Source: an uncultured Acidobacteriota bacterium (lineage in GTDB: Bacteria > Acidobacteriota > Vicinamibacteria > Vicinamibacterales > CAVVIG01). From it: a stretch of DNA of 64,000 nt. Under the pieces are notes generated by a model. It worked only from the letters and a program-made list of their open reading frames with translations. It had not been told where the DNA came from and ran no database searches. How positions within the stretch are numbered: the stretch's first letter is position 1; the number at the start of each line of letters is the position of its first letter. The stretch is from assembly GCA_963757355.1 (NCBI GenBank), contig CAVWRG010000003.1, forward strand, positions 2,465,550-2,529,549, in the 5' to 3' direction. This document shows, piece by piece, positions 141 through 54,864 of this stretch. The position numbers were made by a program, and so were the translations under genes.

Positions 141-1514
<1,374 letters not shown>

Positions 1515-1521: not shown

Positions 1522-1585
1522 GAAAAAGGGGCCGTACCCCTTTTTCGCGTCGGGCCGCCTGAAAAAGGGGTACGGCCCCTTTTTG
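1522..1585. repeat. Paired palindromic mini-element (arm GAAAAAGGGGCCGTACCCCTTTTTC 1522-1546; reverse-complement arm GAAAAAGGGGTACGGCCCCTTTTTG 1561-1585)
   Basis: Each arm is a hairpin (A5G4-CCGTA-C4T5). The arms are mutual reverse complements 14 nt apart. The element begins 8 nt after the hslU stop, so it also resembles a bidirectional intrinsic terminator. Related copies are at 41111, 44291, 51322 and 53296. Confidence 0.9.
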
Positions 1586-4487: not shown

Positions 4488-6029
4488 ATGAATCCAGAAG
4501 AGACGCTTGCCGACCTCGAACACCGCGCGGAGCTGGGCGGTGGACAGGACCGCCTCGATCGCCATCGGGCCGCCGGCAAGCTGACGGCGCGCGAGCGGAT
4601 CGAGCTGCTGTTCGATCCGGGCACATTCGAAGAGGTCGACAAGCTCGTCACCCATCGCTGCCGTGATTTCGGCATGGCCGCGCAGGTCGTGCCCGGCGAC
4701 GGCGTGGTTGCGGGCCATGGGCTCGTCGAGGGACGGCAGGTCTTCGCGTTCGCGCAGGACTTCACCGTCTTCGGCGGATCGCTGTCGGAGACCAACGCCG
4801 CGAAGATCGTGAAGATCATGGATCTGGCGATGAAGCTCGGATCGCCGGTCGTGGGGCTGAACGACTCGGGCGGCGCGCGCATCCAGGAAGGGGTGATGTC
4901 GCTCGGCGGCTACGCCGACATTTTCCTCCGCAACACGCTGTCGTCCGGCGTCATCCCGCAGATCTCGGCGATCATGGGCCCGTGCGCCGGCGGGGCTGTC
5001 TATTCGCCGGCAATCACCGATTTCACGGTGATGGTGAAGAACACGAGCTACATGTTCGTGACCGGCCCGGACGTGATCAAAACGGTCACGCACGAGGAGG
5101 TCTCGAAGGAAGAGCTGGGCGGCGCGATGACGCACAACGTGAAGAGCGGCGTCGCCCACTTCGCCGTGGAGGACGATCGCGAATGCCTCGCGTTGATCCG
5201 CGATCTGCTGTCGTTCCTGCCCTCGAACAATCTGGACGATCCGCCGCGGGCGCAGCTCGAGGATCAGCCGGATCGCGAGGATGCGTCGCTCGATCACCTG
5301 GTGCCGGCGTCGCCGAATCAGCCGTACGACATGCTCGATCTGATTCACACGATTGCCGACGAGAACTACTTCCTCGAGATCCATCAGCACTACGCGAAGA
5401 ACATCATCGTCGGCTTTGCCCGCCTCGACGGGCGTCCGGTGGGCATCGTCGCGAACCAGCCGGCGGTGCTCGCCGGGACGCTCGACATCGACGCGTCGGT
5501 GAAGGGGGCGCGCTTCGTGCGCTTCTGCGACGCGTTCAACATCCCGCTGGTGACGTTCGAGGACGTGCCGGGGTTCATGCCGGGCACCGTCCAGGAGTTC
5601 GGCGGCATCATCCGGCATGGGGCGAAGCTGCTGTTCGCCTTCGCGGAGGCGACCGTGCCGAAGGTGACGGTCATCACGCGCAAAGCGTACGGCGGCGCGT
5701 ACTGCGTCATGTCGAGCAAGCACATTCGAACGGACTTCAACTATGCGTGGCCGACCGCCGAAATCGCGGTGATGGGACCCGAGGGCGCCGTCAACATCCT
5801 CTACAAACGCGAGCTCGAGGCGGCGGCCGATGCAATTGCCGCGCGCGCGGAGAAGGTGTCGGAGTTCCGCGAGAAGTTCGCGAACCCCTACATTGCCGCC
5901 TCGCGCGGTTTCGTGGACGAGGTGATTCATCCGCGCGAGACGCGGCGCAAGCTGATCACCGCGCTGAGGAATCTGGAAAATAAGCGCGACAAGAACCCGG
6001 CGAAGAAACACGGGAACATTCCACTGTGA
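4488..6029 (+). CDS. Acyl-CoA carboxylase carboxyltransferase (beta) subunit, propionyl-CoA carboxylase beta-like
   Basis: ATG 4488 gives [13 protein letters not shown]...[20 protein letters not shown]...[13 protein letters not shown]...[13 protein letters not shown]. This is the carboxyltransferase domain pattern. The antisense 557-aa ORF is rejected. Confidence 0.9.
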
Positions 6030-6086
6030 AATTGGTGAATTGGTCAATTGGTGAGTTGGTGAGTTCGTGAATTGGCGAGTTGCTGA
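6030..6086. repeat. One-armed tandem octamer array, TTGGTGAG family (7 units)
   Basis: AATTGGTG AATTGGTC AATTGGTG AGTTGGTG AGTTCGTG AATTGGCG AGTTGCTG. It runs from the stop of the carboxyltransferase gene to the GTG start of the amidase gene. Confidence 0.85.
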
Positions 6087-7661
6087 GTGATCCGTAGATT
6101 TCTCGAGCCGTCGATCGGCGCCGGATTACTGGCGCTCGCGTTTCTCGCGAGCGCGGCGGCGCAGGCGCCTTCGCCTGCTCGCTTCGTGCTCGAAGAGACA
6201 ACGATCGCGCAGATCGAGGCGGCCCTTCACGGCGGCTCGCTGACCTGTCGTGCGCTCGTCGAGCAGTATCTCCGCCGCATCGAGGCCTACGACAAGAATG
6301 GCGCGGCGCTGAACGCCATCGTGCTGCTGAATCCCGGCGCACTGAAGGTCGCCGACGATCTCGATCGGCGCTTCACGCAGTCGGGTCCCGTCGGACCGCT
6401 GCACTGCGTGCCGATCATCGCCAAGGATAACTACGAAACCGCCGAGATGCCGACGACGGCCGGGTCGCTGTCGTTGAAGGGCATGAGCACGGGCAAGGAC
6501 GCGTTCGTGGTGAAGCGGCTGCGCGCGGCAGGCGCGGTCTTCATCGCGAAGTCGAACATGGCCGAGTTCGCGTTCAGTCCGATCGAGACGGTCAATTCGA
6601 TCCTGCCCGGCTACACGCGCAACCCGTACGACACGTCACGCGTCACCGCGGGATCGAGCGGCGGATCCGCCGCGGCGGAAGCCGCAAATTTCACCGCTGT
6701 CGCCCTGGCGAGCGACACGGGCGATTCGATCCGCGGCCCCGCCGCGCACCAGGCGCTCGTCGGCCTGCGATCGACCATGGGCCTGGTCAGTCGCGCGGGC
6801 GTCGTGCCGCTGAATCTGGCCGCCGACGTCGCCGGCGCCCTGACGAGAACGGTCGCCGACACCGCTGCCATTCTTCAGGCGATTGCCGGCCCGGATCCCG
6901 ATGATCCCGCGACGACTGCAGGGCGTGGACACGTCGACGCCAATTACGCCGCGGCCCTGAAGCTCGACGGCCTGAAGGGCGCGCGCATCGGCGTGCTGCA
7001 CCAGGCGTACGACACCCCGACACTCGATCCCGACGTGGCGCAGGTGTTTCAGCAAGCGCTTGGCGAGCTGCAGCGCGAAGGCGCCATCGTCGTCGATCCG
7101 GTGGCAGTCGACGGCTTCGAGGCCATGCGTGGGGCGCAGTCGGGCGGCTGCAACCGCTTCAAGTACGACCTGAACGGGTATCTCACGTCGCTCGGCGACA
7201 AGGCGCCGATGCACTCGCTGGCGGAGATTATCAAGTCGCGCCGCTATCACCCCTCCATTCAAGCGCGGCTCGAGAGCGCGGAAGCGGCCAACGATGTGCC
7301 CGGCGTCACCCCGGGCTGCAAGGCGAACGACGAGTATCGCGAGAAGCTGCGGGCGGGCGTCCTGAAGCTGATGGACGATCGGCACCTGGACGCGCTCGCC
7401 TATCCCACGTGGAGCAATGTGCCGCGCCTGATTGGCGATCTGAATACGCCTGGCGGCGACAACAGCCAGGTCTTTTCGCCCGGCACCGGCTTCCCCGCGA
7501 TCACGGTGCCGATGGGCTTCACGCGAAGCGGCACGCTCCCCGCGGGTCTCCAGCTGCTGGGCCGCGCGTGGAGCGAGACGACGCTCCTCCGGCTGGCGTA
7601 CGCCTATGAGCAGGCGACGCAGCACCGTCACCCGCCCGCGTCGACGCCGCCGCTGCGCTAA
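6087..7661 (+). CDS. Amidase (amidase-signature family), secreted
   Basis: N-terminal signal peptide ...LALAFLASAAAQAP. It carries the AS motif ...VTAGSSGGSAAAEA... and KDNYETAEMPTTAGS. Confidence 0.85.
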   Translation: MIRRFLEPSIGAGLLALAFLASAAAQAPSPARFVLEETTIAQIEAALHGGSLTCRALVEQYLRRIEAYDKNGAALNAIVLLNPGALKVADDLDRRFTQSGPVGPLHCVPIIAKDNYETAEMPTTAGSLSLKGMSTGKDAFVVKRLRAAGAVFIAKSNMAEFAFSPIETVNSILPGYTRNPYDTSRVTAGSSGGSAAAEAANFTAVALASDTGDSIRGPAAHQALVGLRSTMGLVSRAGVVPLNLAADVAGALTRTVADTAAILQAIAGPDPDDPATTAGRGHVDANYAAALKLDGLKGARIGVLHQAYDTPTLDPDVAQVFQQALGELQREGAIVVDPVAVDGFEAMRGAQSGGCNRFKYDLNGYLTSLGDKAPMHSLAEIIKSRRYHPSIQARLESAEAANDVPGVTPGCKANDEYREKLRAGVLKLMDDRHLDALAYPTWSNVPRLIGDLNTPGGDNSQVFSPGTGFPAITVPMGFTRSGTLPAGLQLLGRAWSETTLLRLAYAYEQATQHRHPPASTPPLR

Positions 7662-20767: not shown

Positions 20768-20844
20768 GGGATTCGTGATTCGGGCTTCGGGATTCGCGGC
20801 GCCCCGAATCCCGATCGAATCCCCAATCCCGAATCCCGAATCCC
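20768..20844. repeat. Inverted heptamer hairpin, GGGATTC family
   Basis: GGGATTCGTGATTCGGGCTTCGGGATTCGCGG | CCCCGAATCCCGATCGAATCCCCAATCCCGAATCCCGAATCCC. It fills the spacer between the regulator and kinase genes. Confidence 0.85.
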
Positions 20845-20852: not shown

Positions 20853-22736
20853 ATGCGACTAGGCATAAAAGGCAAGCAGGTCATCGGCGTCACGTCGATC
20901 GTCGGCGTGGTTGTCGTCGTGTTGAGCCTGGTGCACCTGGCCAACCTGGCGCGCGTGAGCCTCGAAGAGAGCCGCGCGCGCGCGGAGCTGCTTGCGTATT
21001 CGATTTACCACCGCGCCGCCGCGGTCGTGGGCGACAACGGCGATCCGTACAAGGCGCTGCGCGAAGATCCGGGCCTGCGCTCGATCCTCGAATCCAGCCT
21101 GTACTCGAAGAACGTGACCTTCGCCGCGATCGTGGACGCCAACGGCGTCGCCGTCGTGCACGCCGATCCCGCCTACGAGGGGCACGTACTGCTGACCGAA
21201 GATCTGCTCAGCACGCTGCTGGCCAAACGTGCGTTCGAGGAGCTGGTGGCCATCTATTCAGGGCAGGGGCGCAACCTCGAGTTCCGGCAGCCGCTGCTCC
21301 TCGGCAACACGGAATTCGGCTCGATCCGCATCGGCGTCTCGACGCTCCTCATCCGCCAGGATCTCGATCTCTCGCTGCGCCCCGCCGTCGCGACCGCGTT
21401 TGCCGCCCTCGCGGTCGCCGTCATTGTCGCGATGCTGCTCGCACAGCTGCTCCTGCGGCCGATTCACGTGATCCGCAGCGGGTTGACGCGCTTGGGACGC
21501 GGCGAGCTCGACGTGCGCGTCGATCTCGATCAGTCGGACGAATTCGGCGAGCTCGGCACCTTCTTCAACGCCGTCACGGCGCAGCTGTCGGCCGACCGAT
21601 CGCAGATGGCCGGGCAGGTTGCGAACCTCGAGTCGGCGGTCGAGCACCTCGAGGACGCCCTGGCCATCGTCAGCCCCCGAGGCGAGCTGCTGTTTGCGAA
21701 TCCCGCCATGCGGGTGCTGCTGCCGAAGGCGGCGCCAGGCATCGTGCTGAGCCAGCTTGTGCCCGTTGATCACCCGGTGGTGCGGCTGTCCGAGCAGACT
21801 TTGATGACCTGCCAGTCGCGTGGTCCGCTGTCGGCCACGTTCGCCGACGTGAGGGGCGGCGGCGAATCGGGCGAGCGGCTCATCATGACGCACGCGGTCA
21901 ACGATGCGAAAGGTCAGCTCGTCGCGGTCATGATCATTGCGCGCAATCTGGAGTACCTGAGCCAGGTACAGTCGACGATTCGCTACTCGCGCAAGCTCGC
22001 TGCGCTTGGGCGCCTGTCGGCCGGCGTCGCGCACGAGGTGAAGAACCCGCTGAACGCGATGATGATTCACCTGGAGCTGCTCCGGCAGCAGTTCGCCCCG
22101 AGCCCGGCTCGCGCGGGCGCAGGCCGGGCAGGAGCCGGCCGCGCGGCGGGAGCCGTCGCGGTGAGCGGCGCGCCCGTGGCGCCAGGCGTCGACCCGGCCG
22201 ATGCCATTCAGCACGTGGACGTCATCGCCGGCGAGATCCGCCGGCTCGACGAAGTCGTGCAGGGCTTCCTGAGGTTTTCCCGTCCGGAAGATCTCCGGCT
22301 GCAGCCGGTTCGCTTAGAATCGCTGCTCGACGAGATCGTGCCGATCGTGCGCCCAGAGGCGGAACGGCTGGGCGTCGATTTGCGCGTCGAATGCAACGCG
22401 CCCGACGTCAACGGCGATCCCGCGATGCTGCGGCAGGCCTTCCTCAACCTCGCGCTGAACGGGTGTCAGGCGATGCCCAACGGCGGCACGCTGAGCGTGC
22501 ACTGCGAAGCGGCGAGCGGGCACCGCGTATCGGTGTCGTTCGTGGACACGGGCGTCGGCATCAAGCCGGAGCACCTGCAGCGGATCTTCGATCTGTACTA
22601 CACGACGAAGGACAAAGGCAGCGGCATCGGACTGTCGATGGTCTACCGGACGGTGCAGATGCACGACGGCGAGATTGAAGTACAGTCGACTCCAGGCGTG
22701 GGGACGACGTTTCGCGTGCTGCTCCCTCAGGCGTGA
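20853..22736 (+). CDS. Sensor histidine kinase (TM-sensor, HAMP, PAS, HisKA, HATPase_c)
   Basis: ATG 20853 gives MRLGIKGKQVIGVTSIVGVVVVVLSL. H-box LSAGVAHEVKNPLN, N/G boxes ...NLALNGCQAM...DTGVGI...GSGIGLS. Confidence 0.9.
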   Translation: MRLGIKGKQVIGVTSIVGVVVVVLSLVHLANLARVSLEESRARAELLAYSIYHRAAAVVGDNGDPYKALREDPGLRSILESSLYSKNVTFAAIVDANGVAVVHADPAYEGHVLLTEDLLSTLLAKRAFEELVAIYSGQGRNLEFRQPLLLGNTEFGSIRIGVSTLLIRQDLDLSLRPAVATAFAALAVAVIVAMLLAQLLLRPIHVIRSGLTRLGRGELDVRVDLDQSDEFGELGTFFNAVTAQLSADRSQMAGQVANLESAVEHLEDALAIVSPRGELLFANPAMRVLLPKAAPGIVLSQLVPVDHPVVRLSEQTLMTCQSRGPLSATFADVRGGGESGERLIMTHAVNDAKGQLVAVMIIARNLEYLSQVQSTIRYSRKLAALGRLSAGVAHEVKNPLNAMMIHLELLRQQFAPSPARAGAGRAGAGRAAGAVAVSGAPVAPGVDPADAIQHVDVIAGEIRRLDEVVQGFLRFSRPEDLRLQPVRLESLLDEIVPIVRPEAERLGVDLRVECNAPDVNGDPAMLRQAFLNLALNGCQAMPNGGTLSVHCEAASGHRVSVSFVDTGVGIKPEHLQRIFDLYYTTKDKGSGIGLSMVYRTVQMHDGEIEVQSTPGVGTTFRVLLPQA

Positions 22737-23635: not shown

Positions 23636-23653
23636 GCCCCTCTAGCGATCGGG

Positions 23654-23803
23654 CAATTGGTAAATTGGTGAGTTGATAAATTGCTAAAAGCTAAAAGATG
23701 GGGCGATTTTGCGTCCGTAGCCAAATTGCGATCGAATCAGTTTCGACAGCTCGTCAGCATTCCCGGCATTCACCAACTTACCAACTCACCAACTCACCAA
23801 CTC
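23654..23803. repeat. Inverted octamer arrays, TTGGTGAG family, with ~70-nt central loop
   Basis: Left arm CAATTGGTAAATTGGTGAGTTGATAAATTGCTAAAAGCTAAAAG (23654-23697). Right arm ATTCACCAACTTACCAACTCACCAACTCACCAACTC (23768-23803). Confidence 0.8.
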
Positions 23804-23852
23804 TCTTTGTTTTGCACAGATGTCAACATCTTGCGACTGCCCTAAAAGAAAG

Positions 23853-26950: not shown

Positions 26951-27100
26951 GGAACTCGGGACGGGATTTGGGATTTGGGATTAGGGATTCGATTGGGATT
27001 CGGGGTTCGCGATTCGGCGGAACCCCAAATTCCAAACCCAGATCGCAATTCCCAAATCGCGAATCACAACGCGAGTCCCAAATCCCGAATCCCGAATCCC
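26951..27100. repeat. Large inverted heptamer/octamer hairpin, GGGATTC/GGGATTT family (~150 bp)
   Basis: Left arm GGGATTTGGGATTTGGGATTAGGGATTCGATTGGGATTCGGGGTTCGCGATTCGG. Right arm CCCCAAATTCCAAACCC...GTCCCAAATCCCGAATCCCGAATCCC. It starts 1 nt after the nrdJ stop. Confidence 0.85.
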
Positions 27101-36656: not shown

Positions 36657-37841
36657 ATGAAAGCATTAGTCTGGCACGCGACCAATGACGTGCGCGTGGA
36701 GCGCGTCCCCGATCCGGCCATCCTGAATCCGCGGGACGCGATCGTCAAGATTACGACCACGGCCATCTGCGGATCCGATCTGCATCTGCTCGACGGTTAC
36801 ATTCCCACGATGCAAGCGGGCGACATTCTCGGCCATGAATTCATGGGTGAGGTCGTCGAAGTGGGCAAGGACAACACCAAGCTCTCGGTCGGCGATCGCG
36901 TCGTCGTTCCCTTCACGATCGCGTGCGGCCGGTGTTTCTTTTGCGAGAAGCAGCTCTGGTCGCTTTGCGACAACTCGAATCCGAACGCGTGGATGGCGGA
37001 GCAGCTCTATGGGTACAGCGCCTCGGGATTGTTCGGCTACTCGCACCTGACGGGCGGGTACGCCGGCGGACAAGCTCAGTACGCGCGCGTGCCGTTCGCC
37101 GACGTCGGCCCGTTGAAGATTCCAAACAGTTTGACGGACGAGCAGGTGCTGTTTCTCTCGGACATTTTTCCGACGGGATACATGGCGGCCGAAAACTGCG
37201 ACATCCAGCGCGGCGACACGATCGCGATCTGGGGCTGCGGACCCGTGGGGCAGATGGCGATCCGCAGTGCGTTCCTGCTCGGCGCCGAGCGCGTGATCGC
37301 CATCGACGATGTGCGGGAGCGAATGAAGCTGGCGGAGAGGGGCGGCGCCGAGGTCCTGAGCATGGCCGATGACAATGTGTTCGAGCGGCTGAAGGCGATG
37401 ACCGGCGGCCGCGGCCCCGACGCGTGCATCGACGCGGTCGGCATGGAAGCGCACGGCGCGACCCTCGATGCGTACCTCGACAAGCTGAAGGCCGCGGCGT
37501 TCCTCGCCACCGACCGGCCGAGCGCCCTGCGTCAGGCGATTCAGGCCTGTCGCAAGGGTGGCATCGTGTCGGTTCCCGGTGTGTACGGCGGCTTCCTCGA
37601 CAAGATTCCCTTCGGCGCCGCCTTCCAGAAAGGGCTCACACTCCGGATGGGCCAGACGCACGTGATGAAGTACATGCAGCCGCTGCTCGCGCGGATCGAG
37701 CGCGGCGAGATCGATCCGTCCTTCGTGATCACGCATCGCCTGCGCCTGGAGGATGCACCGAAGGCGTACCAGATGTTTCGCGACAAACAGGACGCGTGCA
37801 TCAAGGTCGTGCTGAAGCCGCACGGGGAGACAATTCATTAA
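36657..37841 (+). CDS. Zinc-dependent alcohol/formaldehyde dehydrogenase family
   Basis: ATG 36657 gives [20 protein letters not shown]...[12 protein letters not shown]...[12 protein letters not shown]...CGRCFFCE...[11 protein letters not shown]. Confidence 0.9.
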
Positions 37842-38008
37842 TTGGGAAGTTGGTGAGTTAGTGAGTTGGTGAGTTGGTGAGTTGGCGAGTTGGTAAGTTG
37901 GTAAGTTGGTAAGTTGCTAAGTTGGTGAGTTGACGGCTTGGCGAGTTGGCGATTTGGTGCATTGAATTCGCCAAATCACCAATTCACCAATTTACCAATT
38001 CACCAACT
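37842..38008. repeat. Largest inverted octamer array, TTGGTGAG family (~15 units forward, ~5 units reverse complement)
   Basis: GGAAGTTGGTGAGTTAGTGAGTTGGTGAGTTGGTGAGTTGGCGAGTTGGTAAGTTGGTAAGTTGGTAAGTTGCTAAGTTGGTGAGTTGACGGCTTGGCGAGTTGGCGATTTGGTG - CATTGAATT - CGCCAAATCACCAATTCACCAATTTACCAATTCACCAACTT. It occupies the entire spacer between convergent stops. Confidence 0.9.
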
Positions 38009-39037
38009 TCAGTATGGCAGCTCGTTATTTTCGGCCGCGGCGCGTTCGGTGCTGCGTGTCAGGCGTGACGGCGCCCAGGCGGAGCCGCTCTGCCAGCCGG
38101 TGCGCGGGCGGTCGCCCGATGCGTCCGTCGCCGACGGCAAGAGGCGGTTGGCCCACTCCATCACCAGCGCGACACCCTCAGGCATGAGGGCATTGGCGAC
38201 GACCGCGAGCTTCGCCGGCCAGCTGATCACGAGCTCGGCATCGCCGTGGCGGCAGGCGTCGACCACCTGCCCAGCCGCACGCGCGGCGTCGATCGAGGCG
38301 ATGGGCATCGAATCGGAAATCGCAAACCAGGTGAACTCGTCGCGATAACGCCCCTTGAACCACGCGTTGAACGGCGAGCCGGTGCGCATCATGCCCGGGC
38401 AGACGGTCGTCACGTGAATGCCGTCCTTTGCGAGCTCGCTGCGGACTGAGTCGGACAATCCGGTGAGCGCAAACTTGCTCGCGCAGTACGGCGTCAGGTG
38501 CGGCACGCCGATTTTGCCTCCGATCGAAGAGATGTTGACGATCCGTCCGCCGCCGCGCCGGCGCATCTCCGGGATCGCCGTCAGCATCGTGTGCAGCGGC
38601 CCCCAGAAGTGCACCGCCATCGCTTCTTCGAAGTCGCCTCGCTGCATGTGATCGAGCGGGCCGACCTTGATCACGCCCGCGTTGTTGATCAGCACGTCGA
38701 TGCGTCCTGTGCGCGCCACGACGCCGCGGACCAGCTGTGTGGCCTCCTCGCGATCGCCGACGTTGCAGACGACGATCGCCGCCTCGATGCCGCGGCCGGC
38801 GAGATCATCGCGCGCCCGTTGCAGCTCGGCTTCATCACGGGCGGCGAGCGTGACGCGCGCCCCTTCGCGGCCGAACTCGCGAGCGAGCAGCAGCCCGAGC
38901 CCGCGCGAGCCGCCGGTGATCACAACTGAGCAGCCGTCGAACGTCATCGATCGCACGGCGCGAATCTGGCGTGCAATCAGCGCCGCGCCGATCGTCGCGA
39001 CGCCAGCTGCCAGCGCCGTTTGCTGTGTCTTGTTCAT
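38009..39037 (-). CDS. SDR family oxidoreductase with N-terminal membrane anchor
   Basis: ATG at 39037 gives MNKTQQTALAAGVATIGAALIA... followed by VVITGGSRGLGLLLA, NNAG and YCASKFAL. The track ORF extends spuriously to 39829. Confidence 0.85.
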   Translation of the reverse strand: MNKTQQTALAAGVATIGAALIARQIRAVRSMTFDGCSVVITGGSRGLGLLLAREFGREGARVTLAARDEAELQRARDDLAGRGIEAAIVVCNVGDREEATQLVRGVVARTGRIDVLINNAGVIKVGPLDHMQRGDFEEAMAVHFWGPLHTMLTAIPEMRRRGGGRIVNISSIGGKIGVPHLTPYCASKFALTGLSDSVRSELAKDGIHVTTVCPGMMRTGSPFNAWFKGRYRDEFTWFAISDSMPIASIDAARAAGQVVDACRHGDAELVISWPAKLAVVANALMPEGVALVMEWANRLLPSATDASGDRPRTGWQSGSAWAPSRLTRSTERAAAENNELPY

Positions 39038-39160: not shown

Positions 39161-41797
39161 ATGCCGGACGCTTCGGCACCCACACTGACTGGTCTGGCAG
39201 CCCGCTCCACGCGCGACGGCGCTCTCGACGCCGCCCTCGAGCGGCTGGCGGGTGATCGGCTGCACAGAGACGGGTCTCCGCCCGACGTTCGGAGACCCGT
39301 CCCCCCGGAGACCCGTTCCTCTCTCGACCGACCCGACACGCCCGACCTGCACGTCACCGCAGTCCGCCGCCTCCCGGCCGTTCCCGCGCAGTTCGCACCG
39401 TTTCCAGAGGCGCTCGATCCGCGGCTGCGGCGTGCGCTCGCATCGCGCGGCATCGCGCAGGCCTACACGCATCAGGCCGAAGCGATCGAGCACGCGCTTG
39501 CCGGCCGCCATACCGTCGTCGTCACGCCGACGGCATCCGGCAAGACGCTCTGCTACAACGCGCCGGTCTTGCACGCGATCCTGCAAGATCCAGCGGCGCG
39601 CGCGCTCTATCTGTTTCCGACGAAAGCGCTCGCGCAGGATCAGCTCGCCGAGCTGCAGGCGATGTGCGAAACGCTGTCGGGGCTGCCGTCGGGGACAGGT
39701 CTCGGCGAGGATGAACGAGACCTGTCCCCGATCAGCGTCTTCACCTACGACGGCGACACGCCGCAGGACGCGCGGCGCACGATTCGGGGACGCGCGCATC
39801 TCGTCCTCAGCAATCCGGACATGGTGCACTCAGGCATCCTGCCGCACCACCCGCGATGGGCAAAGCTCTTCGAGAATCTCCGTTACGTGATCATCGACGA
39901 GCTGCACGCCTACCGAGGCGTCTTCGGCAGTCACCTGTGCAACGTGCTGCGGCGGCTGCGCCGCATCTGCCGGCATTACGGATCGAATCCGGTGTTCCTC
40001 TGTTCGTCGGCGACCATCGCGAACCCGCAGGAGCTGGCGGAACGGCTCACCGAGCAGCCATTCGAGTTGGTCGATCAAAGCGGCGCACCGCGCGGCGAGA
40101 AGTTCTTCGTGTTCGTCAACCCGCCGGTGGTGAATCAGCCGCTGGGCATCCGCCGGTCGTATCTGAGTGAGACGCGCCGCATTGCCGCCGAATTCCTGAA
40201 GCGGAATCTGCAGCTGATCGTCTTCGCGCAGAGCCGTCTCGCCACCGAGATTCTGACGACGTACCTGAAGGACGACTTCGAAGGGATGCCTGGCGCACCC
40301 GAGCGGATCCGTGGGTATCGCGGCGGATATCTGCCGAATCGGCGCCGCGAGATCGAAAAGGGCTTGCGGGAAGGTGCGGTGCGCGCGGTGGTCTCGACCA
40401 ACGCGCTCGAGCTCGGCATCGACATCGGTGCGCTCGACGTCAGCGTCATGGCCGGCTACCCGGGGACGATCGCGGGGACGTGGCAGCGCGCCGGGCGCGC
40501 CGGACGCCGCGCCAGCCGATCGGCGGCAGTGATGGTCGCCAGCAGCGCACCGCTCGATCAGTTCGTCGTCCGCAACCCGTCGTACTTCTTCGACGCGTCG
40601 CCCGAGCGCGCGCTGATCGATCCTGACAACCTCCATATCCTGGTCGATCACATCAAGTGCGCCGCCTTCGAGCTGCCGTTCACGACGAGCGAGGCGTTCG
40701 GCCGGCACGACCTCCAGGAGATTCTGTCGCTGCTGGCGGAGCAGGGGCTGGTGCATCGCGCCGGCGGCAGCGCCGACCTCGACGCGCCGGAGGTCGAAAC
40801 GCAGTGGACGTGGACGAACGAATCGTACCCGGCCGACGCGGTCAGCCTGCGGTCGGTGTCCTCAGACAATTTCGTGATTGTCGATACGACAGAGGAGACG
40901 TGCGTCATCGGAGAGACCGATTTCACGAGCGGCCCCGCCACGCTCCATCCCAAAGCGATCTACATCGTCGAAGGGAAGCTGTATCAGGTGGAGAGGCTCG
41001 ATTTCGAAGGACGCAAGGCGTTCGTGCGCGCGATCGAGTGTGACTACTACACGACCGCGATCACGTACACGCGGGTGACGATCCTCGATACGTTTGCGCA
41101 AGGCGCGGAGGAACAGGGGTACGGCCCCTTTTCGGGTGAGTCCGGCGACGAAAAGGGGCCGTACCCCTTTTCCTCGCACGGCGAGGTCCACGTCGTGTCG
41201 CGCGTCGTCGGGTTCAAGAAGATCAAGTTCTATACGAACGAAAATGTCGGATCCGGCGAGCTCGACCTGCCCGAGCAGCAGATGCACACGACCGCGTACT
41301 GGCTGACCATTCCAGCGTCGGTGATGAGGCTGCTGCCGTGCGCCTCGGACGATCGGCGCGACGGCGTCGTTGGCTTGGCGTTCGCGATGCGCCAGGTCGC
41401 GCAGCTGCTGTTGATGTGCGATGGGCACGACATCGGCATCTCAATTTCCGGATTCGGGATTGGGGATGCGGGATTGGGGCCGAAAGCGGGCCAGTCGAAT
41501 CCCGCATCCCCAATCCCCAATCCCGACGGCGTTCAGATCTTTGTGTACGACAATTACCCGGGTGGGATTGGTTTCAGCGAGCCGTTGTTCCGGATGCACG
41601 ATGAGTTGCTCGCCGCGACGCGCCGTCTCATCGCCGAGTGCGAGTGCGAGAGCGGTTGCCCGGGATGCGTCGGCCCCGTCGGCAATACCGGACCGCTCGC
41701 GAAAGTGGTGGCGCTGCGGATTCTCGATCTGTTGACGGGCGCGACGGCGCTCTCCACGCCGGCGCACACGGTCGATCCAGAGGTTCAACCTTTTTGA
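39161..41797 (+). CDS. DEAD/DEAH-box helicase with C-terminal DUF1998 zinc domain (MrfA/YprA-like)
   Basis: Motif I VVVTPTASGKTLCY, motif II IIDELHAY, SAT-like SSATIAN, and QRAGRAGRR. The C-terminus carries CECESGCPGCV. Two repeat insertions lie in frame. Confidence 0.9.
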   Translation: MPDASAPTLTGLAARSTRDGALDAALERLAGDRLHRDGSPPDVRRPVPPETRSSLDRPDTPDLHVTAVRRLPAVPAQFAPFPEALDPRLRRALASRGIAQAYTHQAEAIEHALAGRHTVVVTPTASGKTLCYNAPVLHAILQDPAARALYLFPTKALAQDQLAELQAMCETLSGLPSGTGLGEDERDLSPISVFTYDGDTPQDARRTIRGRAHLVLSNPDMVHSGILPHHPRWAKLFENLRYVIIDELHAYRGVFGSHLCNVLRRLRRICRHYGSNPVFLCSSATIANPQELAERLTEQPFELVDQSGAPRGEKFFVFVNPPVVNQPLGIRRSYLSETRRIAAEFLKRNLQLIVFAQSRLATEILTTYLKDDFEGMPGAPERIRGYRGGYLPNRRREIEKGLREGAVRAVVSTNALELGIDIGALDVSVMAGYPGTIAGTWQRAGRAGRRASRSAAVMVASSAPLDQFVVRNPSYFFDASPERALIDPDNLHILVDHIKCAAFELPFTTSEAFGRHDLQEILSLLAEQGLVHRAGGSADLDAPEVETQWTWTNESYPADAVSLRSVSSDNFVIVDTTEETCVIGETDFTSGPATLHPKAIYIVEGKLYQVERLDFEGRKAFVRAIECDYYTTAITYTRVTILDTFAQGAEEQGYGPFSGESGDEKGPYPFSSHGEVHVVSRVVGFKKIKFYTNENVGSGELDLPEQQMHTTAYWLTIPASVMRLLPCASDDRRDGVVGLAFAMRQVAQLLLMCDGHDIGISISGFGIGDAGLGPKAGQSNPASPIPNPDGVQIFVYDNYPGGIGFSEPLFRMHDELLAATRRLIAECECESGCPGCVGPVGNTGPLAKVVALRILDLLTGATALSTPAHTVDPEVQPF
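41111..41173. repeat. Paired palindromic mini-element inside the helicase CDS (arms GGGGTACGGCCCC then GGGGCCGTACCCC)
   Basis: GAACAGGGGTACGGCCCCTTTTC - 16 nt - GAAAAGGGGCCGTACCCCTTTTCC, 63 nt in all. It is translated as EQGYGPFSGESGDEKGPYPFS. Confidence 0.85.
41448..41525. repeat. Inverted heptamer hairpin (GGGATTS family) inside the helicase CDS
   Basis: A perfect 20-bp inverted repeat, GGGATTGGGGATGCGGGATT (41456-41475) and AATCCCGCATCCCCAATCCC (41498-41517). The 78-nt block stays in frame. Confidence 0.9.
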
Positions 41798-43083
41798 GCG
41801 CGCTCTCCGACCGCCTGCGTGGCATCATCGGCGCGCCGCCGCCTGGCGCCGCGGGGACCGGATCCCAAGTCCCGTGGAGCGGATCCCAAATCCCGGCCGA
41901 ATCCCAAATCCCGATCGAATCCCGAATCCCAAATCCCGAATCCCGAGATCTCTCCTGCCTGGCCGGCGAATGGCGCGGTGGCTGTTTCGTCGTGGAGCGG
42001 CGATACGACCGTGGCGTCTGCTATGGCCACGAGCCCGTCGGGGCGCTCTGGAGCCGCCTGGCAGCAGCCGCAGACGAGGCGCCGCTTGTCGCCGGCGGTG
42101 CGCCGGCGCGGCTGCCGTTCGTGTTCTTCGATTTGGAAACCACCGGTCTGAGCGGCGGCGCCGGCACTCACGCGTTTCTGGTGGGCTGCGCCTCGTTCGA
42201 CGAAGAAGGCGCGTTCGTCACGCGGCAATTCCTGCTCACGCGCTTCACCGACGAGAAGCCGCTGCTCGCCGCGGTGGCCGCCGAGCTCGCCCGGGCGGGC
42301 GCGTTGGTCAGCTTCAACGGCAAGTCGTTCGACGCGCCGGTGCTGGAGACGCGCTACTTGTATCACCGGCTGCCATGGGCCGCAGGGCAGCTGCCGCACA
42401 TGGACGTTCTGCACCCGGCACGGCGCTTCTGGCGCGACGAGCAGGAGATGGCGAGCTGTTCGCTGGTGTCGCTCGAGCGTCAGATCCTCGGGGCGCGCCG
42501 CATCGGCGACGTCCCGGGATTCGAGATTCCTGCGCGTTACTTTCAGTTCATTCGGAGTGGCGAGGCGCGCCCGCTGGCGGCCGTGCTCGAGCACAACCGG
42601 CTCGATTTGTTGTCGCTCGCCGGGCTGACCGCGCGCCTGCTGCATCTCATCCGCCGGGGTCCTGGCGCCGCGAAGGACGCGCGCGAGGCGTTGGCGCTCG
42701 GACGGGTGTACCTGCGTGCCGGGCTCGAGGTGCGCGCGTGCGACGCGTTCCAACAGGCGGCCGACCGATCGAGCGCGCACAGCGCGGTCAGAATCGAGTC
42801 GCTGCGCGCGCTGGCGCTGGCCTGGCGCCGCGCGCGGCAGCACGACCGCGCGGCAGCCTGCTGGAGCGCGCTGCTCGACGCGCCCGCGTGTCCGCGCCAC
42901 GTCGCACGTGAGGCGACCGACGCGCTCGCGATTCATCACGAGCATCGCGTCCGCGATCTCGCCGCGGCGAAAGGCTTTGCATTACGAAGTCTGGAATCCG
43001 GCGTGCATCCCGCCAGTCACGCGGCGGTGAGGCATCGTCTGGCACGGATCGAGCGGAAGATGAGCTCGCGTTTGCTGCTGTAG
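41794..43083 (+). CDS. DEDDh-type 3'-5' exonuclease with TPR-like C-terminus (MrfB/YprB-like)
   Basis: The TTG start overlaps the helicase stop (TTGA) and gives (M)SALSDRLRGII. Exo motifs are FFDLETTGL, FNGKSFDAPVLETRY and LEHNRLDLLSLAGL, with a helical repeat tail. The start is uncertain. Confidence 0.75.
   Translation: MSALSDRLRGIIGAPPPGAAGTGSQVPWSGSQIPAESQIPIESRIPNPESRDLSCLAGEWRGGCFVVERRYDRGVCYGHEPVGALWSRLAAAADEAPLVAGGAPARLPFVFFDLETTGLSGGAGTHAFLVGCASFDEEGAFVTRQFLLTRFTDEKPLLAAVAAELARAGALVSFNGKSFDAPVLETRYLYHRLPWAAGQLPHMDVLHPARRFWRDEQEMASCSLVSLERQILGARRIGDVPGFEIPARYFQFIRSGEARPLAAVLEHNRLDLLSLAGLTARLLHLIRRGPGAAKDAREALALGRVYLRAGLEVRACDAFQQAADRSSAHSAVRIESLRALALAWRRARQHDRAAACWSALLDAPACPRHVAREATDALAIHHEHRVRDLAAAKGFALRSLESGVHPASHAAVRHRLARIERKMSSRLLL
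41860..41946. repeat. One-armed heptamer array (GAATCCC/AAATCCC units) inside the exonuclease CDS
   Basis: GGATCCCAAGTCCC...GGATCCCAAATCCCGGCCGAATCCCAAATCCCGATCGAATCCCGAATCCCAAATCCCGAATCCCGAG, translated as GSQVPWSGSQIPAESQIPIESRIPNPESR. Confidence 0.85.
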
Positions 43084-43519: not shown

Positions 43520-43554
43520 GTAGGAGCCGGCCTATGTGCCGGCCCGTACTCTAC
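43520..43554. repeat. REP-like hairpin (GTAGGAGCCGGCC-TATGT-GCCGGCCCGTACTCTAC)
   Basis: GTAG...CTAC termini with a GCCGGC stem. The terminal CTAC supplies the TAG stop of the minus-strand aldo/keto reductase gene. Confidence 0.6.
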
Positions 43555-44555
43555 GGCGTCGCGTTCGGCGCGCGGTCCCACCGATGGCTCCGCAGCGCTT
43601 CCTTCAACCGGGGTGGGAGAGGCGCCGCATCGCTGACGGCCATGTTGCGTTCGACGTGCCCGGTCCGGCGCATACCGGGAATCGTGGTGCTGACGGCCGG
43701 GTTCGCCAGGATGAATCGCAGCGCGATCTCGGCCAGATTCATCCCCTCCGGCACGAGCGGCTCGAGCCGCTCGACACGCGCGAGCGTGGCCGCCAGGTGG
43801 CCGGGGTTGAAATAGACGTTGCGCCAATCGCCTTCCGGCCAGCGTGATTCCGCGGTCAACGTGCCTGTGAGGCTGCCTTCATCGAAGGGCACCCGCGCGA
43901 TGACGGCGATGCCGTGCTGCTGACAATAGGGGAGCAGCGTATCCTCCGCCGACTGATCGAAGATGTTGTAGACCACCTGCACGCTGTCGATCAGGCCGGT
44001 GTCGAGCGCCCGCAGGACGTTTTCCGGCTCCCACCGGTTGACGCTGATCCCGAAACCGCGGATCAGCTTTTCGCGTTTCAGTGTCTCGACCGCCCGCTGC
44101 CAGCCGCGATCCGCGGCCCAGGCGTCGCTCCAGACGTGAAACTGTTGCAGGTCGATCGCCTCCACGCCGAGGTTCGCGAGGCTCTTCTCCGTGTACTCGC
44201 GGATGTGATCGGCGGGATAGGTGTCGCGGACGTCGTATTCCGCCCGCCCCGGCCATTTCATGTTCTTCGGCGGGATCTTGGTGGCGACGACAACGGGCCG
44301 TATCCCTTTTTCGCCGGCATCGCTCGGAAAAGGGGTACGGCCCCTTTTTCGGAGCGCCTGCCCGAGCAGCGTCTCGCTCTTGCCTGCGCCGTAGGCCCAC
44401 GCCGTGTCGAAGAAGGTGCAGCCGAGGGTCAGCGCGCGATCCAGCGCCTGCAGCGACTCCTCATCGTTGGAGCCGGTCCAGCCGCCCATGCCCCACAGGC
44501 CATAGCCGACTTCAGAAACCTGCCAGCCCGCTCGGCCGAATGTCCGGTAGCGCAT
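43551..44555 (-). CDS. Aldo/keto reductase
   Basis: MRYRTFGRAGWQVSEVGYGLWGMGGW...FFDTAWAYGAGKSE...VVATKIPP...IGISV...AIARVPFDEGSLTG. It contains an in-frame repeat insertion. Confidence 0.9.
   Translation of the reverse strand: MRYRTFGRAGWQVSEVGYGLWGMGGWTGSNDEESLQALDRALTLGCTFFDTAWAYGAGKSETLLGQALRKRGRTPFPSDAGEKGIRPVVVATKIPPKNMKWPGRAEYDVRDTYPADHIREYTEKSLANLGVEAIDLQQFHVWSDAWAADRGWQRAVETLKREKLIRGFGISVNRWEPENVLRALDTGLIDSVQVVYNIFDQSAEDTLLPYCQQHGIAVIARVPFDEGSLTGTLTAESRWPEGDWRNVYFNPGHLAATLARVERLEPLVPEGMNLAEIALRFILANPAVSTTIPGMRRTGHVERNMAVSDAAPLPPRLKEALRSHRWDRAPNATP
44291..44350. repeat. Paired palindromic mini-element inside the aldo/keto reductase CDS (one arm degenerate)
   Basis: CAACGGGCCGTATCCCTTTTTC - 14 nt - GAAAAGGGGTACGGCCCCTTTTTC, 60 nt in all. 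It reads on the minus strand as RKRGRTPFPSDAGEKGIRPV. Confidence 0.85.
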
Positions 44556-46554: not shown

Positions 46555-46641
46555 GGGATTTGTGATTCGTGATTGGGATTCGGCGGGATTCGTCTCGAAT
46601 CCGACCGGCTGCGAATCCCAAATCCCGAATCCCGAATCCCC
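46555..46641. repeat. Inverted heptamer hairpin, GGGATTC family
   Basis: GGGATTTGTGATTCGTGATTGGGATTCGGCGGGATTCGT | CGAATCCGACCGGCTGCGAATCCCAAATCCCGAATCCCGAATCCC. It fills the spacer between the engB start and the lon stop. Confidence 0.85.
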
Positions 46642-46647: not shown

Positions 46648-49047
<2,400 letters not shown>

Positions 49048-49121
49048 ATTTGGTGAGTTGGCAATTTGGTAAATGGGTAAATTGAACTTACCAATTTACC
49101 AACTTATCCATTTACCAATTT
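49048..49121. repeat. Inverted octamer hairpin, TTGGTGAG/TTGGTAAA family
   Basis: ATTTGGTGAGTTGGCAATTTGGTAAATGGGTAAATTG | ACTTACCAATTTACCAACTTATCCATTTACCAATTTC. It spans the whole lon-clpX spacer. Confidence 0.85.
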
Positions 49122-49123
49122 CT

Positions 49124-50371
<1,248 letters not shown>

Positions 50372-50439: not shown

Positions 50440-51051
50440 CTACGCCCTTTTGCGGATGACATCGTCAATAATACCGTATTCCTTGCCCTGATCCGCCGAC
50501 ATGATGTAGTCGCGCTCGGTGTCGTCCTGGATGCGCTTGACCGGTTGTCCGGTGTGATGGACCAGGATCTCGTTGAGCCGCTCCCGCATGCGGAGAATCT
50601 CGCGCGCCGCAATATCAATATCGGTCGCTTGGCCGCCTAAACCAGACATCAACGGCTGATGAATGACAATCCGTGAATTCGGCAGCGAAAATCGCTTTCC
50701 CTTCGCACCAGCCGAGAGCAACACGGCGGCCATCGACGCCGCCTGCCCGATGCAATAGGTCTGCACATCGGGCTTGATGAACTGCATGGTGTCGTAAATG
50801 GCCATCCCGGCGGTAATCGAGCCGCCCGGGCTGTTGATGTAGAGCAGGATGTCCTTGTCGGGGTCTTCCGCCTCCAGGAACAGCATCTGGGCGATGACCA
50901 GGTTGGCAATTCCGTCATCAATCGGCGTGCCGATGAAGATGATGCTGTCCTTCAGCAGACGCGAAAAAATATCGTAGGCCCGTTCACCACGGTTGGTCTG
51001 TTCAACCACCATGGGCACCAGTTGATTCCGGGCGTCAGGCGGATAGTGCAT
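50440..51051 (-). CDS. clpP: ATP-dependent Clp protease proteolytic subunit ClpP
   Basis: ...[27 protein letters not shown]..., catalytic [11 protein letters not shown], and IHQP. ATG 51051 is preferred because GAGGA lies 9 nt upstream. The track start at 51093 is possible. Confidence 0.9.
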
Positions 51052-51321
51052 AGACGATTGTCCTCGGGGCGCCGGCTCGGATGCGGGCCGCACGTCAGAT
51101 CAGTTAGGCCGTCGCGCGAGCGTCCGGCATGTCACACGATGTTGGCTAGGATGGATTTGCCCCGGCAGGGCGAGCACTGCCAGCTATTGTAACACGTGAA
51201 ACGCGCGGAACGCCTCTGGTGCAGATCCGAGCACTTTTACCGGGGACATTCCGCCCGATGATCACGTATCCGTCGGCCTCCGACAAATTTTGTCCGGTGT
51301 CGTCCAGCTGAACCGGATGCC

Positions 51322-51345
51322 GAAAAGGGGCCGTACCCCTTTTCC
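51322..51345. terminator. Single arm of the palindromic mini-element (GAAAAGGGGCCGTACCCCTTTTCC) downstream of tig
   Basis: A4G4-CCGTA-C4T4 hairpin 27 nt after the tig stop on the minus strand. It has a U-run on either strand, giving a bidirectional intrinsic-terminator shape. Confidence 0.45.
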
Positions 51346-51371: not shown

Positions 51372-52673
51372 TCAATCGGTGAAGGTGGCCTTGCTCATTA
51401 CGAAGTCGACCGCTTTTTCGCGGCGCAAGCCCGATCGCACCCGGGACAGCCCGCCCTCTTTCTCGAGCCCGGCGCGCACGGCCGCCGGCGCCCGGCCCGT
51501 CCGTGCGGCGAAGCGCTCGATCTCCTGCTCGACCTCTTCGTCAGTGGCGTCGAGGTGCTCGTGCCGCGAGAGCTCGTCGAGCACCAGCGCACTCGCGACC
51601 GCTTCGCGCGCGACCTCGCGCTGGCTCTCCCGGAACGCGTTCCAGTCGATGCCGGCCTGCCGCGGATCGATGTTCTGATCGATCAGGCGCCGCGCAAAAT
51701 CCTCGATCCGCCGATCGATCTCGCGTTCGATGAGCGACGCAGGCACCTCGAAGGGCACGCGGGTCGCCAGCTGCTTCATCAGCTCCGCGCGGACGTCGCG
51801 CTCGGCCGCATGCCGCGCTTCGTGCTCGAGATCCTCACGCACCCGCGCGCGCAGGGCCTCGAGTGTTTCGAACTCGCCGAGATCTTTGGCGAGCTCATCG
51901 TCGAGCGCCGGCAGCACGCGACGCTTCAGGCTCTTGACGTGGACCGTGTACGTCACGTCCGTGCCGGCCAGCTCGGTGATCGTGTAGTCGGAGGGATAGT
52001 GCAGCGTGAACGTCTTGGTGGCATCCGGCTCCAGGCCGAGCAGCTGCTCGTCGAATCCGGGCGGATTCGCTTTCGCGCCCAGCTCCACCGACACGTCGGC
52101 GTGTGTGTCGGCGCCTGCGTCCTCGGCTGCCGTGCCGTCGGGCGGCGGTGTCGCGGCGTGGCGCTCCAGGTCGAGCACGACGGTGTCGCCGTGATCGACG
52201 CCGCGTCCCTCGACAGGCTCGAAGCGGGCCGCGCGCTCGCGCAGCCGCTCCATCGCGAGATCGACCGCCTCGTCGTCCACGCGCGTCGATGCGCGCTTCA
52301 ACGACACCGTCGCGTAATCGCCCGGTTCGAACGGCGGCAGGGTGTCGAATGTCGCGGTGAAGGTGAGCGGCTGACCTTCCTCGACGTTTACGTCCCGAAT
52401 ATCCGGCGTGTCGACCGGTTCGACGCCGCGCTCCCGCAGCGCATCGTCCATCGCGCGCGGAATCAGGTCGTGGACGACGTCGTGCAGGATCTGGTCCTTG
52501 AAGCGCTGCTTGATCACGCGCGCGGGCGCTTTCCCCGGGCGAAATCCCGGCACGCGCGCCTTGCGCGAATAGTCGCGGGCGATGCGGTCGATCTCGGCGC
52601 TGACCACATCTGTGGGAATTTCGACGCGCACGTTCTTGCGCGTCTCGTTGACGTCGACGAACTCGGTTTTCAT
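51372..52673 (-). CDS. tig: Trigger factor
   Basis: 433 aa. N-terminal ...RKARVPGFRPGKAPARVIKQRF is the ribosome-binding GFRPGK signature, in tig-clpP-clpX-lon synteny. Confidence 0.95.
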   Translation of the reverse strand: MKTEFVDVNETRKNVRVEIPTDVVSAEIDRIARDYSRKARVPGFRPGKAPARVIKQRFKDQILHDVVHDLIPRAMDDALRERGVEPVDTPDIRDVNVEEGQPLTFTATFDTLPPFEPGDYATVSLKRASTRVDDEAVDLAMERLRERAARFEPVEGRGVDHGDTVVLDLERHAATPPPDGTAAEDAGADTHADVSVELGAKANPPGFDEQLLGLEPDATKTFTLHYPSDYTITELAGTDVTYTVHVKSLKRRVLPALDDELAKDLGEFETLEALRARVREDLEHEARHAAERDVRAELMKQLATRVPFEVPASLIEREIDRRIEDFARRLIDQNIDPRQAGIDWNAFRESQREVAREAVASALVLDELSRHEHLDATDEEVEQEIERFAARTGRAPAAVRAGLEKEGGLSRVRSGLRREKAVDFVMSKATFTD

Positions 52674-52698
52674 GCGATTTTCATGGAGTGAAAACGAG

Positions 52699-52816
52699 AT
52701 TTGGTGATCTGGTGATTTGGTGACTTGGCGATTGATGACCTGGCGAATGGGATGTCAGTGCAGTCACTAACACCCTCAATTCACCAACTCTCCAACTCAC
52801 CAACTCGCCAATTTTA
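52699..52816. repeat. Inverted octamer hairpin, TTGGTGAY family
   Basis: ATTTGGTGATCTGGTGATTTGGTGACTTGGCGATTGATGACCTGGCGAATGG - 25-nt loop - TCAATTCACCAACTCTCCAACTCACCAACTCGCCAATTTT. It lies between tRNA-Leu and the tig start. Confidence 0.85.
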
Positions 52817-52871
52817 CCGATCTGATGCTTGGGCTCCGAAGCTCACGCGCGATGGCGCGTGAGCGAAGGAG

Positions 52872-54861: not shown

Positions 54862-54864
54862 AAG

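Follow-up and report, generated by a model that had tools for sequence, protein, structure and literature searches.

A stop-free hairpin repeat after and inside genes of Vicinamibacteria looks like a relative of the REP elements

Background

Five places in a 64-kb stretch of the genome of an uncultured Acidobacteriota bacterium (contig CAVWRG010000003.1 of assembly GCA_963757355.1; this whole stretch is called the window below) carry the same short hairpin, singly or as inverted pairs, directly behind some genes and in the reading frame of others. This raises the question of whether such hairpins are terminators that arose one by one, the ends of a miniature transposon, or copies of a dispersed repeat, and of what could have copied them. 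A comparison with other genomes answers part of it: the hairpin has been copied to many non-homologous sites, and has been gained, lost and degraded differently among related lineages. The explanation that we consider probable is a lineage-specific family of short palindromic repeats in the soil-dwelling class Vicinamibacteria, similar to the repetitive extragenic palindromes (REP), which is propagated by copying, resembles a terminator after genes and is tolerated in-frame within them. That it is a REP-like dispersed repeat family extending across the clade we hold with high confidence. Our search of the literature on the motif and on repeats of Vicinamibacter and Acidobacteria found no description of the element, and viral contigs held no exact match to the motif.

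Results

The hairpin unit and its spread

The anatomy and gene context of the repeat were read in the window, and a collection with one genome per species was scanned for the same arm. The scan gave at least 49 loci (numbered L) in at least 15 species-level assemblies, 13 of the 15 labelled Acidobacteriota, Vicinamibacteria or "gp6". The remaining two are labelled, in the database's terms, Actinomycetota (L004, on the 690-kb contig CAWATS010000027.1) and Burkholderiales (L013, on the 3-kb contig DATHHS010000097.1), which reflects either mis-binning or spread beyond the Acidobacteriota. The window and these 49 arm-seeded loci together make a sample of 440 kb, on which the searches for the hairpin frame, for an enzyme and for recurrent neighbouring genes were based.

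Each unit, or arm, is a hairpin of 23-24 nt, (C)GAAAAGGGG-CCGTA-CCCCTTTT(T)C(G), and a position matrix of 78 arms aligned by loop orientation gives the consensus G-AAAA-GGGG-CCGTA-CCCC-TTTT(T)-C. Conservation in these arms ends at -5 on the 5' side and at +18 on the 3' side, with position -5 a G and position -6 weakly C; the weak outer C/G pair lengthens the palindrome by one. The stem is perfect over 9-10 bp and its base, GAAAA/TTTTC, has one G-C pair and four A-T pairs. The 5-nt loop is asymmetric and gives the unit a polarity (F with the loop CCGTA, R with TACGG), and the unit as a whole is slightly asymmetric too, its 5' side having A4 and its 3' side, in most cases, T5. Folded as RNA, arm F of doublet 1 reaches -13.4 kcal/mol (z = -3.9) and the whole doublet -50.7 kcal/mol (z = -7.2); overall, single arms fall between -13 and -15 and doublets between -34 and -54 kcal/mol, well under the shuffled controls.

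The motif is far more frequent in the window than chance would allow. GGGGCCGTACCCC with up to two mismatches matched nine times against 1.53 expected, a count reached by none of 100 shuffles, and the frame AAAGGGG-N5-CCCCTTT matched eight times against 0.02 expected, always with the CCGTA/TACGG loop or a one-base variant. All seven AAAGGGG and all eight CCCCTTT of the 64 kb fall within arms, and no A/T-run hairpin of the arm kind was found elsewhere in the window. The preliminary description, made from the window alone, had counted five loci, four of them with paired arms 12-16 nt apart and one with a single arm, beside hslU, tig and a convergent pair of a small open reading frame (ORF) and dam, and partly inside coding sequences. 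All of this holds: there are nine arms, in four doublets with spacers of 14, 16, 14 and 12 nt (doublets 1, 2, 3 and 5) and one single arm, the neighbouring genes are confirmed by their Pfam domains, and doublets 2 and 3 lie in-frame in a helicase gene and an aldo-keto reductase (AKR) gene. That description had also allowed that further copies might be lacking, or that the loops might diverge once many arms were aligned. What we found is the same hairpin, with the same loop, at non-homologous loci of at least 15 species-level genomes; of 67 matches to the A/T-run frame in the 440 kb, 64 have the CCGTA/TACGG loop, and three have variant or degenerate loops.

Among 30 doublets, 24 are in the FR and six in the RF arrangement, which are truly distinct because each is its own reverse complement. 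The distance from core to core has its mode at 39 and is mostly 35-40 nt, the whole doublet being 55-65 nt long. The spacers (~14 nt) are unrelated between loci, even within one genome, as in the MFD05513 loci and in the four doublets of the window. Single arms make up about 40% of loci, and several of these "singles" have a decayed partner. Since the spacers are unrelated between loci, the hairpin and not the doublet is the conserved module, which argues both against a MITE (a miniature transposable element with inverted repeats) and against a REPIN, the inverted REP doublet, replicating as a unit. The paired mini-element that had been proposed as the unit thus gives way to the single hairpin, given that arms often stand alone and that pairs may be either FR or RF. 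Nor are any target-site duplications or flanking direct repeats, which the preliminary description had suggested looking for, visible around the 30 doublets. At L003 (5485-5590) an arm is bordered on both sides by repeated TTTTCGTG(C) motifs, in a T-rich context unusual for these genomes.

Copies after genes

Position and orientation relative to genes were pooled over 53 loci, two orthologous pairs included, the genes around loci being called by a simple codon-position G+C rule (GC1>GC2), which is a crude caller. By this measure 21 of the 53 loci begin between -2 and +10 nt from a stop codon and 25 within 30 nt, and the proximity persists where the next gene is hundreds of nt away. The stop codon overlaps the element's own G/A-run in about eight cases (TGAAAAGGGG, TAAAAGGGG). 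In 20 of 25 cases (p = 0.004) the stop-proximal arm stands in F orientation on the sense strand, so that T5 comes after the hairpin; this is largely due to the predominance of FR, which shows F from either convergent direction. Within coding sequences RF doublets are over-represented, four of the six lying there as against five of the 24 FR doublets (p = 0.049). These statistics fit a role as terminator or 3'-end hairpin without proving one; the terminator-like look of the intergenic copies, noticed in the window, is strengthened as far as position and orientation can do so. At L005 (~7336-7400) a gene ends in codons made up of a decayed arm and the spacer, and its TGA stop shares bases with the A-run of the arm that is intact; a C-terminus seems to have taken up the element.

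Copies inside genes

There is no stop codon in any of the six frames of the unit, as can be read directly from its letters, and because of this it avoids no reading frame on either strand. The arm peptides are EKGPYPFF, KRGRTPF and KGAVPLF from one strand and EKGVRPLF, KKGYGPF and KRGTAPF from the other; a synthetic arm-peptide query against proteins returned six candidates, none of them significant. At least nine loci, about 15-20% of those sampled, lie in-frame inside conserved genes (Table 1), a copy being accepted as such by Pfam domains flanking or spanning the insert or by the surrounding ORF. In the window, the translations through the inserts read ..EEQGYGPFSGESGDEKGPYPFSS.. in the helicase and ..KRGRTPFPSDAGEKGIRPV.. 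in the AKR. Gaps in the alignments with solved homologues coincide exactly with the insert sites.

Dxr alone gains the whole doublet, +18 aa. The gain is +16 or +17 aa in UvrA, where the spacer peptide GEGAS could be the native loop of 4-5 aa, +11 aa in SelA and +9 aa in methylmalonyl-CoA mutase. The AKR gains +12 aa or, in L054 and L056, +16 aa, the length of two 8-codon arms; single-arm forms gain only +3 to +5 aa. At L014 the stop-free element may have fused two genes.

Gain, loss and constancy of the arms

The doublet after hslU is common to the window and L025, a 93%-identical relative in which the second arm is truncated, and none of 80 related hslU loci from metagenomes (72-91% aa identity) was found to have an arm at this site or in its flanks. 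Most of 120 homologues have an empty helicase loop; arms, in FR or RF pairs or singly and decayed to different degrees, are present in about 12. L051 has the window doublet minus 39 nt (spacer and arm F), the missing stretch lying between direct CCCCTTTTC repeats, and L052 has three substitutions in the arms. L058 pairs a perfect arm with one that carries four changes. In the AKR loop most homologues have a native RAHRGAPAY-like sequence; FR doublets turn up here and there on the tree, as do single R arms, and protein P0123, which bears an FR doublet, is 93% identical to P0138, which is empty.

Palindromes of other kinds lie within the first ~100 nt after hslU in L059, L063 and L070, namely a 17-bp inverted repeat GAGATCGCAGCGATCGC, CGCAAAG/CTTTGCG repeats and ATCGCCGAG/CTCGGCGAT. 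The idea of a conserved hairpin slot after hslU is not supported in general, the palindromes being unrelated and occurring in only some relatives (L059, L063, L070, L080), with many having none. Both the window and L054 have the AKR gene in the interval from rpmE (L31) to rho, an interval that lacks it in L052 and L051, whose helicase regions are 94% and 83% identical to that of the window.

How constant the arms are can be judged from five AKR alleles compared at the DNA level. The arm codons (AAA AGG GGC CGT ACC CCT TTT and GAA AAA GGG GTA CGG CCC CTT TTC) are kept, and differ from the synonymous codons used at flanking positions. Among identical residues, codons are identical at 99 of 104 positions (95%) in the arms against ~68% in the rest of the gene, and nucleotide identity is 93% in the arms and 56% in the spacer; comparisons within clades are weaker evidence of arm constraint. 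An intergenic single arm is likewise identical at 23 of 23 positions between genomes that are 83% identical. The 5' junction in the AKR gene shows a four-codon difference between clades, and the cross-clade spacers are near random, yet most have D at the second position. The constancy can be read in two ways: either the insertion is old and constraint or conversion acts on its arms as nucleic acid, or one permissive loop has been the target of several insertions or of allelic transfer.

Features of the window and other repeats

Table 1. Coordinates of the hairpin arms, their host and neighbouring genes, and other repeats (window positions unless an L number is given)
Feature	Location	Strand or setting	Remarks
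Locus 1, doublet 1 arm F, GAAAAAGGGGCCGTACCCCTTTTTC	1522-1546	+	7 nt past hslU stop
Doublet 1 spacer, 14 nt	1547-1560		unconserved between loci; one aligned position differs from the L025 spacer
Doublet 1 arm R, loop TACGG	1561-1584	+	reverse complement of arm F; truncated in orthologue L025
Locus 2, doublet 2 arm R (RF), A-run GAACA	41111-41133	+	in-frame in helicase gene; encodes EQGYGPFS
Doublet 2 spacer, 16 nt	41134-41149		encodes GESGD
Doublet 2 arm F	41150-41172	+	in-frame in helicase gene; encodes EKGPYPFS
Locus 3, doublet 3 degenerate arm F (CGGGCCGTATCCC)	44289-44312	+	inside minus-strand AKR gene; encodes EKGIRPVV
Doublet 3 intact arm R	44327-44350	+	inside minus-strand AKR gene; encodes KRGRTPF
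Locus 4, single arm F	51322-51344	+	between tig and clpP (both -); 27 nt past tig stop
Locus 5, doublet 5 arm F	53297-53320	+	first G is last base of the TAG stop of ORF 53004-53297
Doublet 5 arm R, loop TACAG (one mismatch)	53333-53356	+	dam (-) takes its TAA stop from T-run plus A
hslU	141-1514	+	Pfam AAA_2 and other AAA families; doublet 1 abuts its 3' end
MrfA/Hrq1-type DEAD-box helicase	39161-41797	+	Pfam DEAD, Helicase_C, WHD_HRQ1, MZB; doublet 2 in hypervariable loop
Aldo-keto reductase (AKR)	43551-44555	-	Pfam Aldo_ket_red, 1.1e-50; doublet 3 in loop just before conserved VATKIPP strand
clpP	50440-51093	-, downstream of tig	Pfam
tig	51372-52673	-	Pfam
Small ORF	53004-53297	convergent with dam	stop overlaps one end of doublet 5
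dam	53354-54337	-	Pfam; stop overlaps other end of doublet 5
Methylmalonyl-CoA mutase	L007	in coding sequence	Pfam/ORF
ThiS-ThiF-rhodanese ORF linker	L014, 5946-7478 (-)		doublet directly past ThiS GG motif; one continuous ORF
PurL	L019	in coding sequence	Pfam/ORF
AcrB-type pump	L026	in coding sequence	Pfam/ORF
SelA	L030	in coding sequence	Pfam/ORF
Dxr	L031	in coding sequence	insert splits DXPR_C domain in two
TonB linker	L032	in coding sequence	Pfam/ORF
UvrA	L042	in coding sequence	Pfam/ORF
Octamer arrays	6001-6096, 23640-23811, 37811-38017, 49034-49132, 52684-52822, 54286-54389, 54850-54971		
GAATCCC/GGGATTC repeat	20788-20844, 21697-21705, 27059-27100, 41483-41524, 41885-41945, 42515-42523, 46584-46640		

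Besides the hairpin, the window holds intergenic tandem arrays of an 8-nt unit (TTGGTGAG / GTTGGTGA) followed by the inverted unit TCACCAAY, so that long palindromic arrays richer in A+T result; arrays of a similar kind (CCAACTCC/GGAGTTGG) stand behind hslU in L080, L092 and L133, three loci from metagenomes. A tRNA gene at 52872-52954 (-), the sole Rfam match of the scan, lies between tig and the small ORF with octamer arrays on either side. A second dispersed repeat, GAATCCC/GGGATTC, is partly palindromic, and its form CGGGATTCG occurs 11 times in the window against 1.9 expected. It is also present in the C-terminal region of the helicase (protein ..SPIPNPDG..), and NPESRIPNP-type peptides fill the variable helicase loop in the homologues P0059, P0062 and P0110.

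The loops that carry the arms also hold a peptide pair of another kind, EKGSGVVS ... ETTPDPFS in the helicases P0003, P0017 and P0049, with KGTGVVS in the AKR P0178. The two members look complementary, which suggests yet another family of hairpins that shares the AAAAGGGG/CCCCTTTT ends and differs at the centre. The 5' region of the helicase gene of the window contains a perfect hairpin with a 12-bp stem, GACGGGTCTCCG...CGGAGACCCGTC, at 39269-39301.

Discussion

The findings are best explained, in our view, by a REP-like family whose unit is the single hairpin, and a mechanism can be sketched for it. After genes, the hairpin with its A4 and T5 tracts would be a 3'-end hairpin or a compact intrinsic terminator that works in both directions, and we have moderate confidence that the post-gene copies terminate transcription or protect 3' ends. 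Inside genes, a copy would survive only as an in-frame extra loop in a permissive surface region. Propagation could be the work of a hairpin-recognising enzyme that acts on single-strand DNA, of the HUH/Y1 kind that moves REPs, and such a candidate enzyme would install hairpins singly, not the doublet as a unit. We give low to moderate credence to a Y1/HUH-type enzyme as the mover of this hairpin.

Several results weigh against this account. Beyond the seeded sites only two arms were found in ~390 kb, so the copy number may be modest in many genomes. No HUH...Y..NP signature was found by regular expression in all six-frame ORFs of the 440 kb, a tblastn search of the same DNA with the E. coli RayT gave a best E of 0.39, and no gene family recurrently adjoins the arms in the sampled loci. 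(Sigma-54 activator paralogues, the sole cluster near arms, were dismissed as generic and inconsistently linked.) As to termination, the arm hairpin is followed by a U-tract of only 4-5, which is short, and a terminator scan by consensus passed the arms over, since it counts the T-run as part of the stem. No clean empty/filled pair from a recent event was found at the DNA level, so that current mobility is unproven. Finally, genes often show a net gain in length that falls short of the element, and arm peptides overlie native residues, namely Y-G in SelA and EEGxxP in the AcrB-type pump; simple insertion predicts neither. If the arm supplies them, the Y-G codons of SelA would read TAC GGC, which is the core of the arm loop. 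The short gains may have come from later trimming, from replacement guided by microhomology, or from the separate installation of two hairpins around host DNA, and the last of these would also explain why spacers are of constant length and unrelated.

The closest alternative is that this is a canonical REP/REPIN family, the doublet being a REPIN and the cognate REP-associated tyrosine transposase (RAYT) being encoded elsewhere in the genome. Much of the picture agrees with it: a high-copy short palindrome found mostly downstream of genes, inverted dimers with variable spacers and occasional intragenic copies are known from such families, and relatives of the Y1 transposase have been reported in Acidobacteria (PMC3733652, PMC6006769); the doublets do fold into long hairpins. 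However, there is no GT[AG]G or CGTC tag and the sequence 5' of the hairpin foot is unconserved, the basal stem is A-T and not G+C-rich, so that the element fails the operational definition of a REP (PMC6006769), no RAYT-like ORF occurs in the 440 kb seeded on the repeat, and the spacers are unrelated within one genome, unlike those of replicating REPINs. We regard a canonical family as possible but doubtful. Less likely still, if worth stating, is that the hairpin is a self-standing mobile terminator module and not a RAYT-type REP, installed singly by a hairpin-specific enzyme that needs no GTAG guide and prefers the bases directly behind stop codons, and refreshed by conversion. Such a module would prefer a second, inverted site ~39 nt from an existing hairpin, which would explain spacers of constant length made of unrelated, partly host-derived sequence, and conversion would keep the arms identical at synonymous sites, with the same protein loops rewritten repeatedly across the whole class.

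Three further explanations fit less well. Arms that are near-invariant across species while the spacers drift, arm identity that holds at synonymous sites in genes, the scattered distribution on the AKR tree (compatible with allelic recombination), inverted pairs after genes and copies in the repair genes for UvrA and MrfA would all suit a motif like the DNA uptake sequence (DUS) or uptake signal sequence (USS), kept constant by biased uptake or gene conversion, with inverted pairs doubling as terminators. We think this very unlikely, as the density is one to two orders below that of known signals (nine arms in the 64 kb and only the two unseeded ones in ~390 kb), the unit is itself a perfect hairpin, the in-gene copies are extra sequence relative to homologues and not point-mutational matches, and arms do decay. 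A MITE, with the 60-nt doublet as a small transposon that ends in 23-bp inverted repeats and is mobilised by the DDE transposase of an insertion sequence (IS), would account for inverted arms around a short core, for dispersed copies and for the gain in Dxr of exactly one doublet (18 aa). It would be hard to reconcile with the lack of target-site duplications, a core that is unrelated between copies whose arms are identical, single arms at ~40% of loci and the occurrence of both FR and RF, and no IS with such ends was seen in the sampled DNA; we consider it extremely unlikely. The idea that these are ordinary bidirectional intrinsic terminators, evolved independently and without common descent, draws on the design of A-tract, G+C stem and T-tract and on the placement right after stop codons, but a 5-nt loop identical in more than 60 copies, in-frame copies in at least nine genes and the same 23-mer at non-homologous loci in at least 15 species leave it next to no probability, the invariant loop and the intragenic copies being enough to refute it. 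The preliminary description had likewise leaned towards a mobile or copy-propagated element over unrelated terminators, and this is now supported by the spread over at least 15 genomes, the absence at 80 hslU sites and the presence or absence in the same protein loops. A CRISPR-like array was set aside because there are only two repeats and the spacers are too short, and an integron attC site because there is no cassette array.

For the REP-like family, then, the questions that can be put to test are how a site beside a stop codon is chosen, how arms stay constant when spacers drift, and whether the repeat supplies terminators in high-G+C genomes otherwise without T-tracts. There are practical consequences as well, in that assemblies can break at the motif, its loop insertions can inflate alignments of protein families, and it can be used as a lineage marker.

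Comparison with known systems

Bidirectional intrinsic (Rho-independent) terminators share with the Vicinamibacteria hairpin the A-tract, the G+C stem-loop, the T-tract and a stable RNA hairpin immediately downstream of convergent or tandem genes. Ordinary terminators differ in that their loops are not identical, they are not found in-frame in genes, and no 23-mer is common to them across species. The DUS of Neisseria and the USS of Haemophilus are short motifs that occur clade-wide, also inside genes, and their inverted pairs after genes can terminate transcription. With their density of ~1/kb they are far more frequent than our element, which moreover is a hairpin by itself and whose intragenic copies are insertions. 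From Correia elements it is distinguished by having no TA duplication or long terminal inverted repeat.

The Rickettsia palindromic elements (RPE) lie in-frame in protein genes, to which they add a peptide without destroying the protein, and occur in non-coding DNA too. The in-frame insertion into protein-coding genes is the likeness here. By description the two are set apart, RPEs being ~100-150 bp long, of their own sequence families and confined to Rickettsia, as against a unit of 23-24 nt in Acidobacteriota, and the Vicinamibacteria hairpin strongly prefers the first bases after stop codons. It thus offers a second clear case, after the RPEs, of palindromic DNA in-frame in housekeeping proteins (UvrA, Dxr, SelA, PurL and an AcrB-type pump).

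The closest kind are the REPs with their composite forms, the bacterial interspersed mosaic elements (BIME) and REPINs, e.g. the REPs of E. coli, the REPINs of Pseudomonas and the SMAG repeats of Stenotrophomonas. They are likewise dispersed palindromes of 20-40 nt, found mainly downstream of ORFs between convergent or co-directional genes, with inverted dimers and some intragenic copies. In E. coli, stop-codon-proximal REPs were reportedly described by Liang, Rudd and Deutscher in 2015. By the operational definition a REP has GTAG or GTGG 0-2 nt 5' of the hairpin foot, a fully paired basal stem of 7-20 nt that is G+C-rich at its base, and a loop of 2-5 nt; REPs have also been implicated in the regulation of translation (PMC6006769). 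A second superfamily carries the tag CGTC, and inverted dimers with variable spacers, positions downstream of ORFs, intragenic copies in repair genes and the same site hit in different lineages are all on record, with mention of RPE-1 in a coding gene (PMC3733652). The Vicinamibacteria hairpin falls within the limits for stem and loop. It differs in having neither the GTAG/GTGG nor the CGTC tag, in an A-T-rich stem base whose A4 and T5 tracts mimic a bidirectional terminator, in a perfect stem with an invariant asymmetric loop, in its high share of in-frame intragenic copies, in its phylum, Acidobacteriota, and, as against REPINs, in doublet spacers that do not replicate with the arms. As the hairpin breaks the rules of automatic REP finding, i.e. 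the GTAG/CGTC tag and the G+C-rich base, such elements are probably under-counted. To a class of repeats studied mainly in Proteobacteria, it adds a family from Vicinamibacteria, a group known here almost wholly from metagenome-assembled genomes, and what it looks like is an undescribed relative of the REP repeats.

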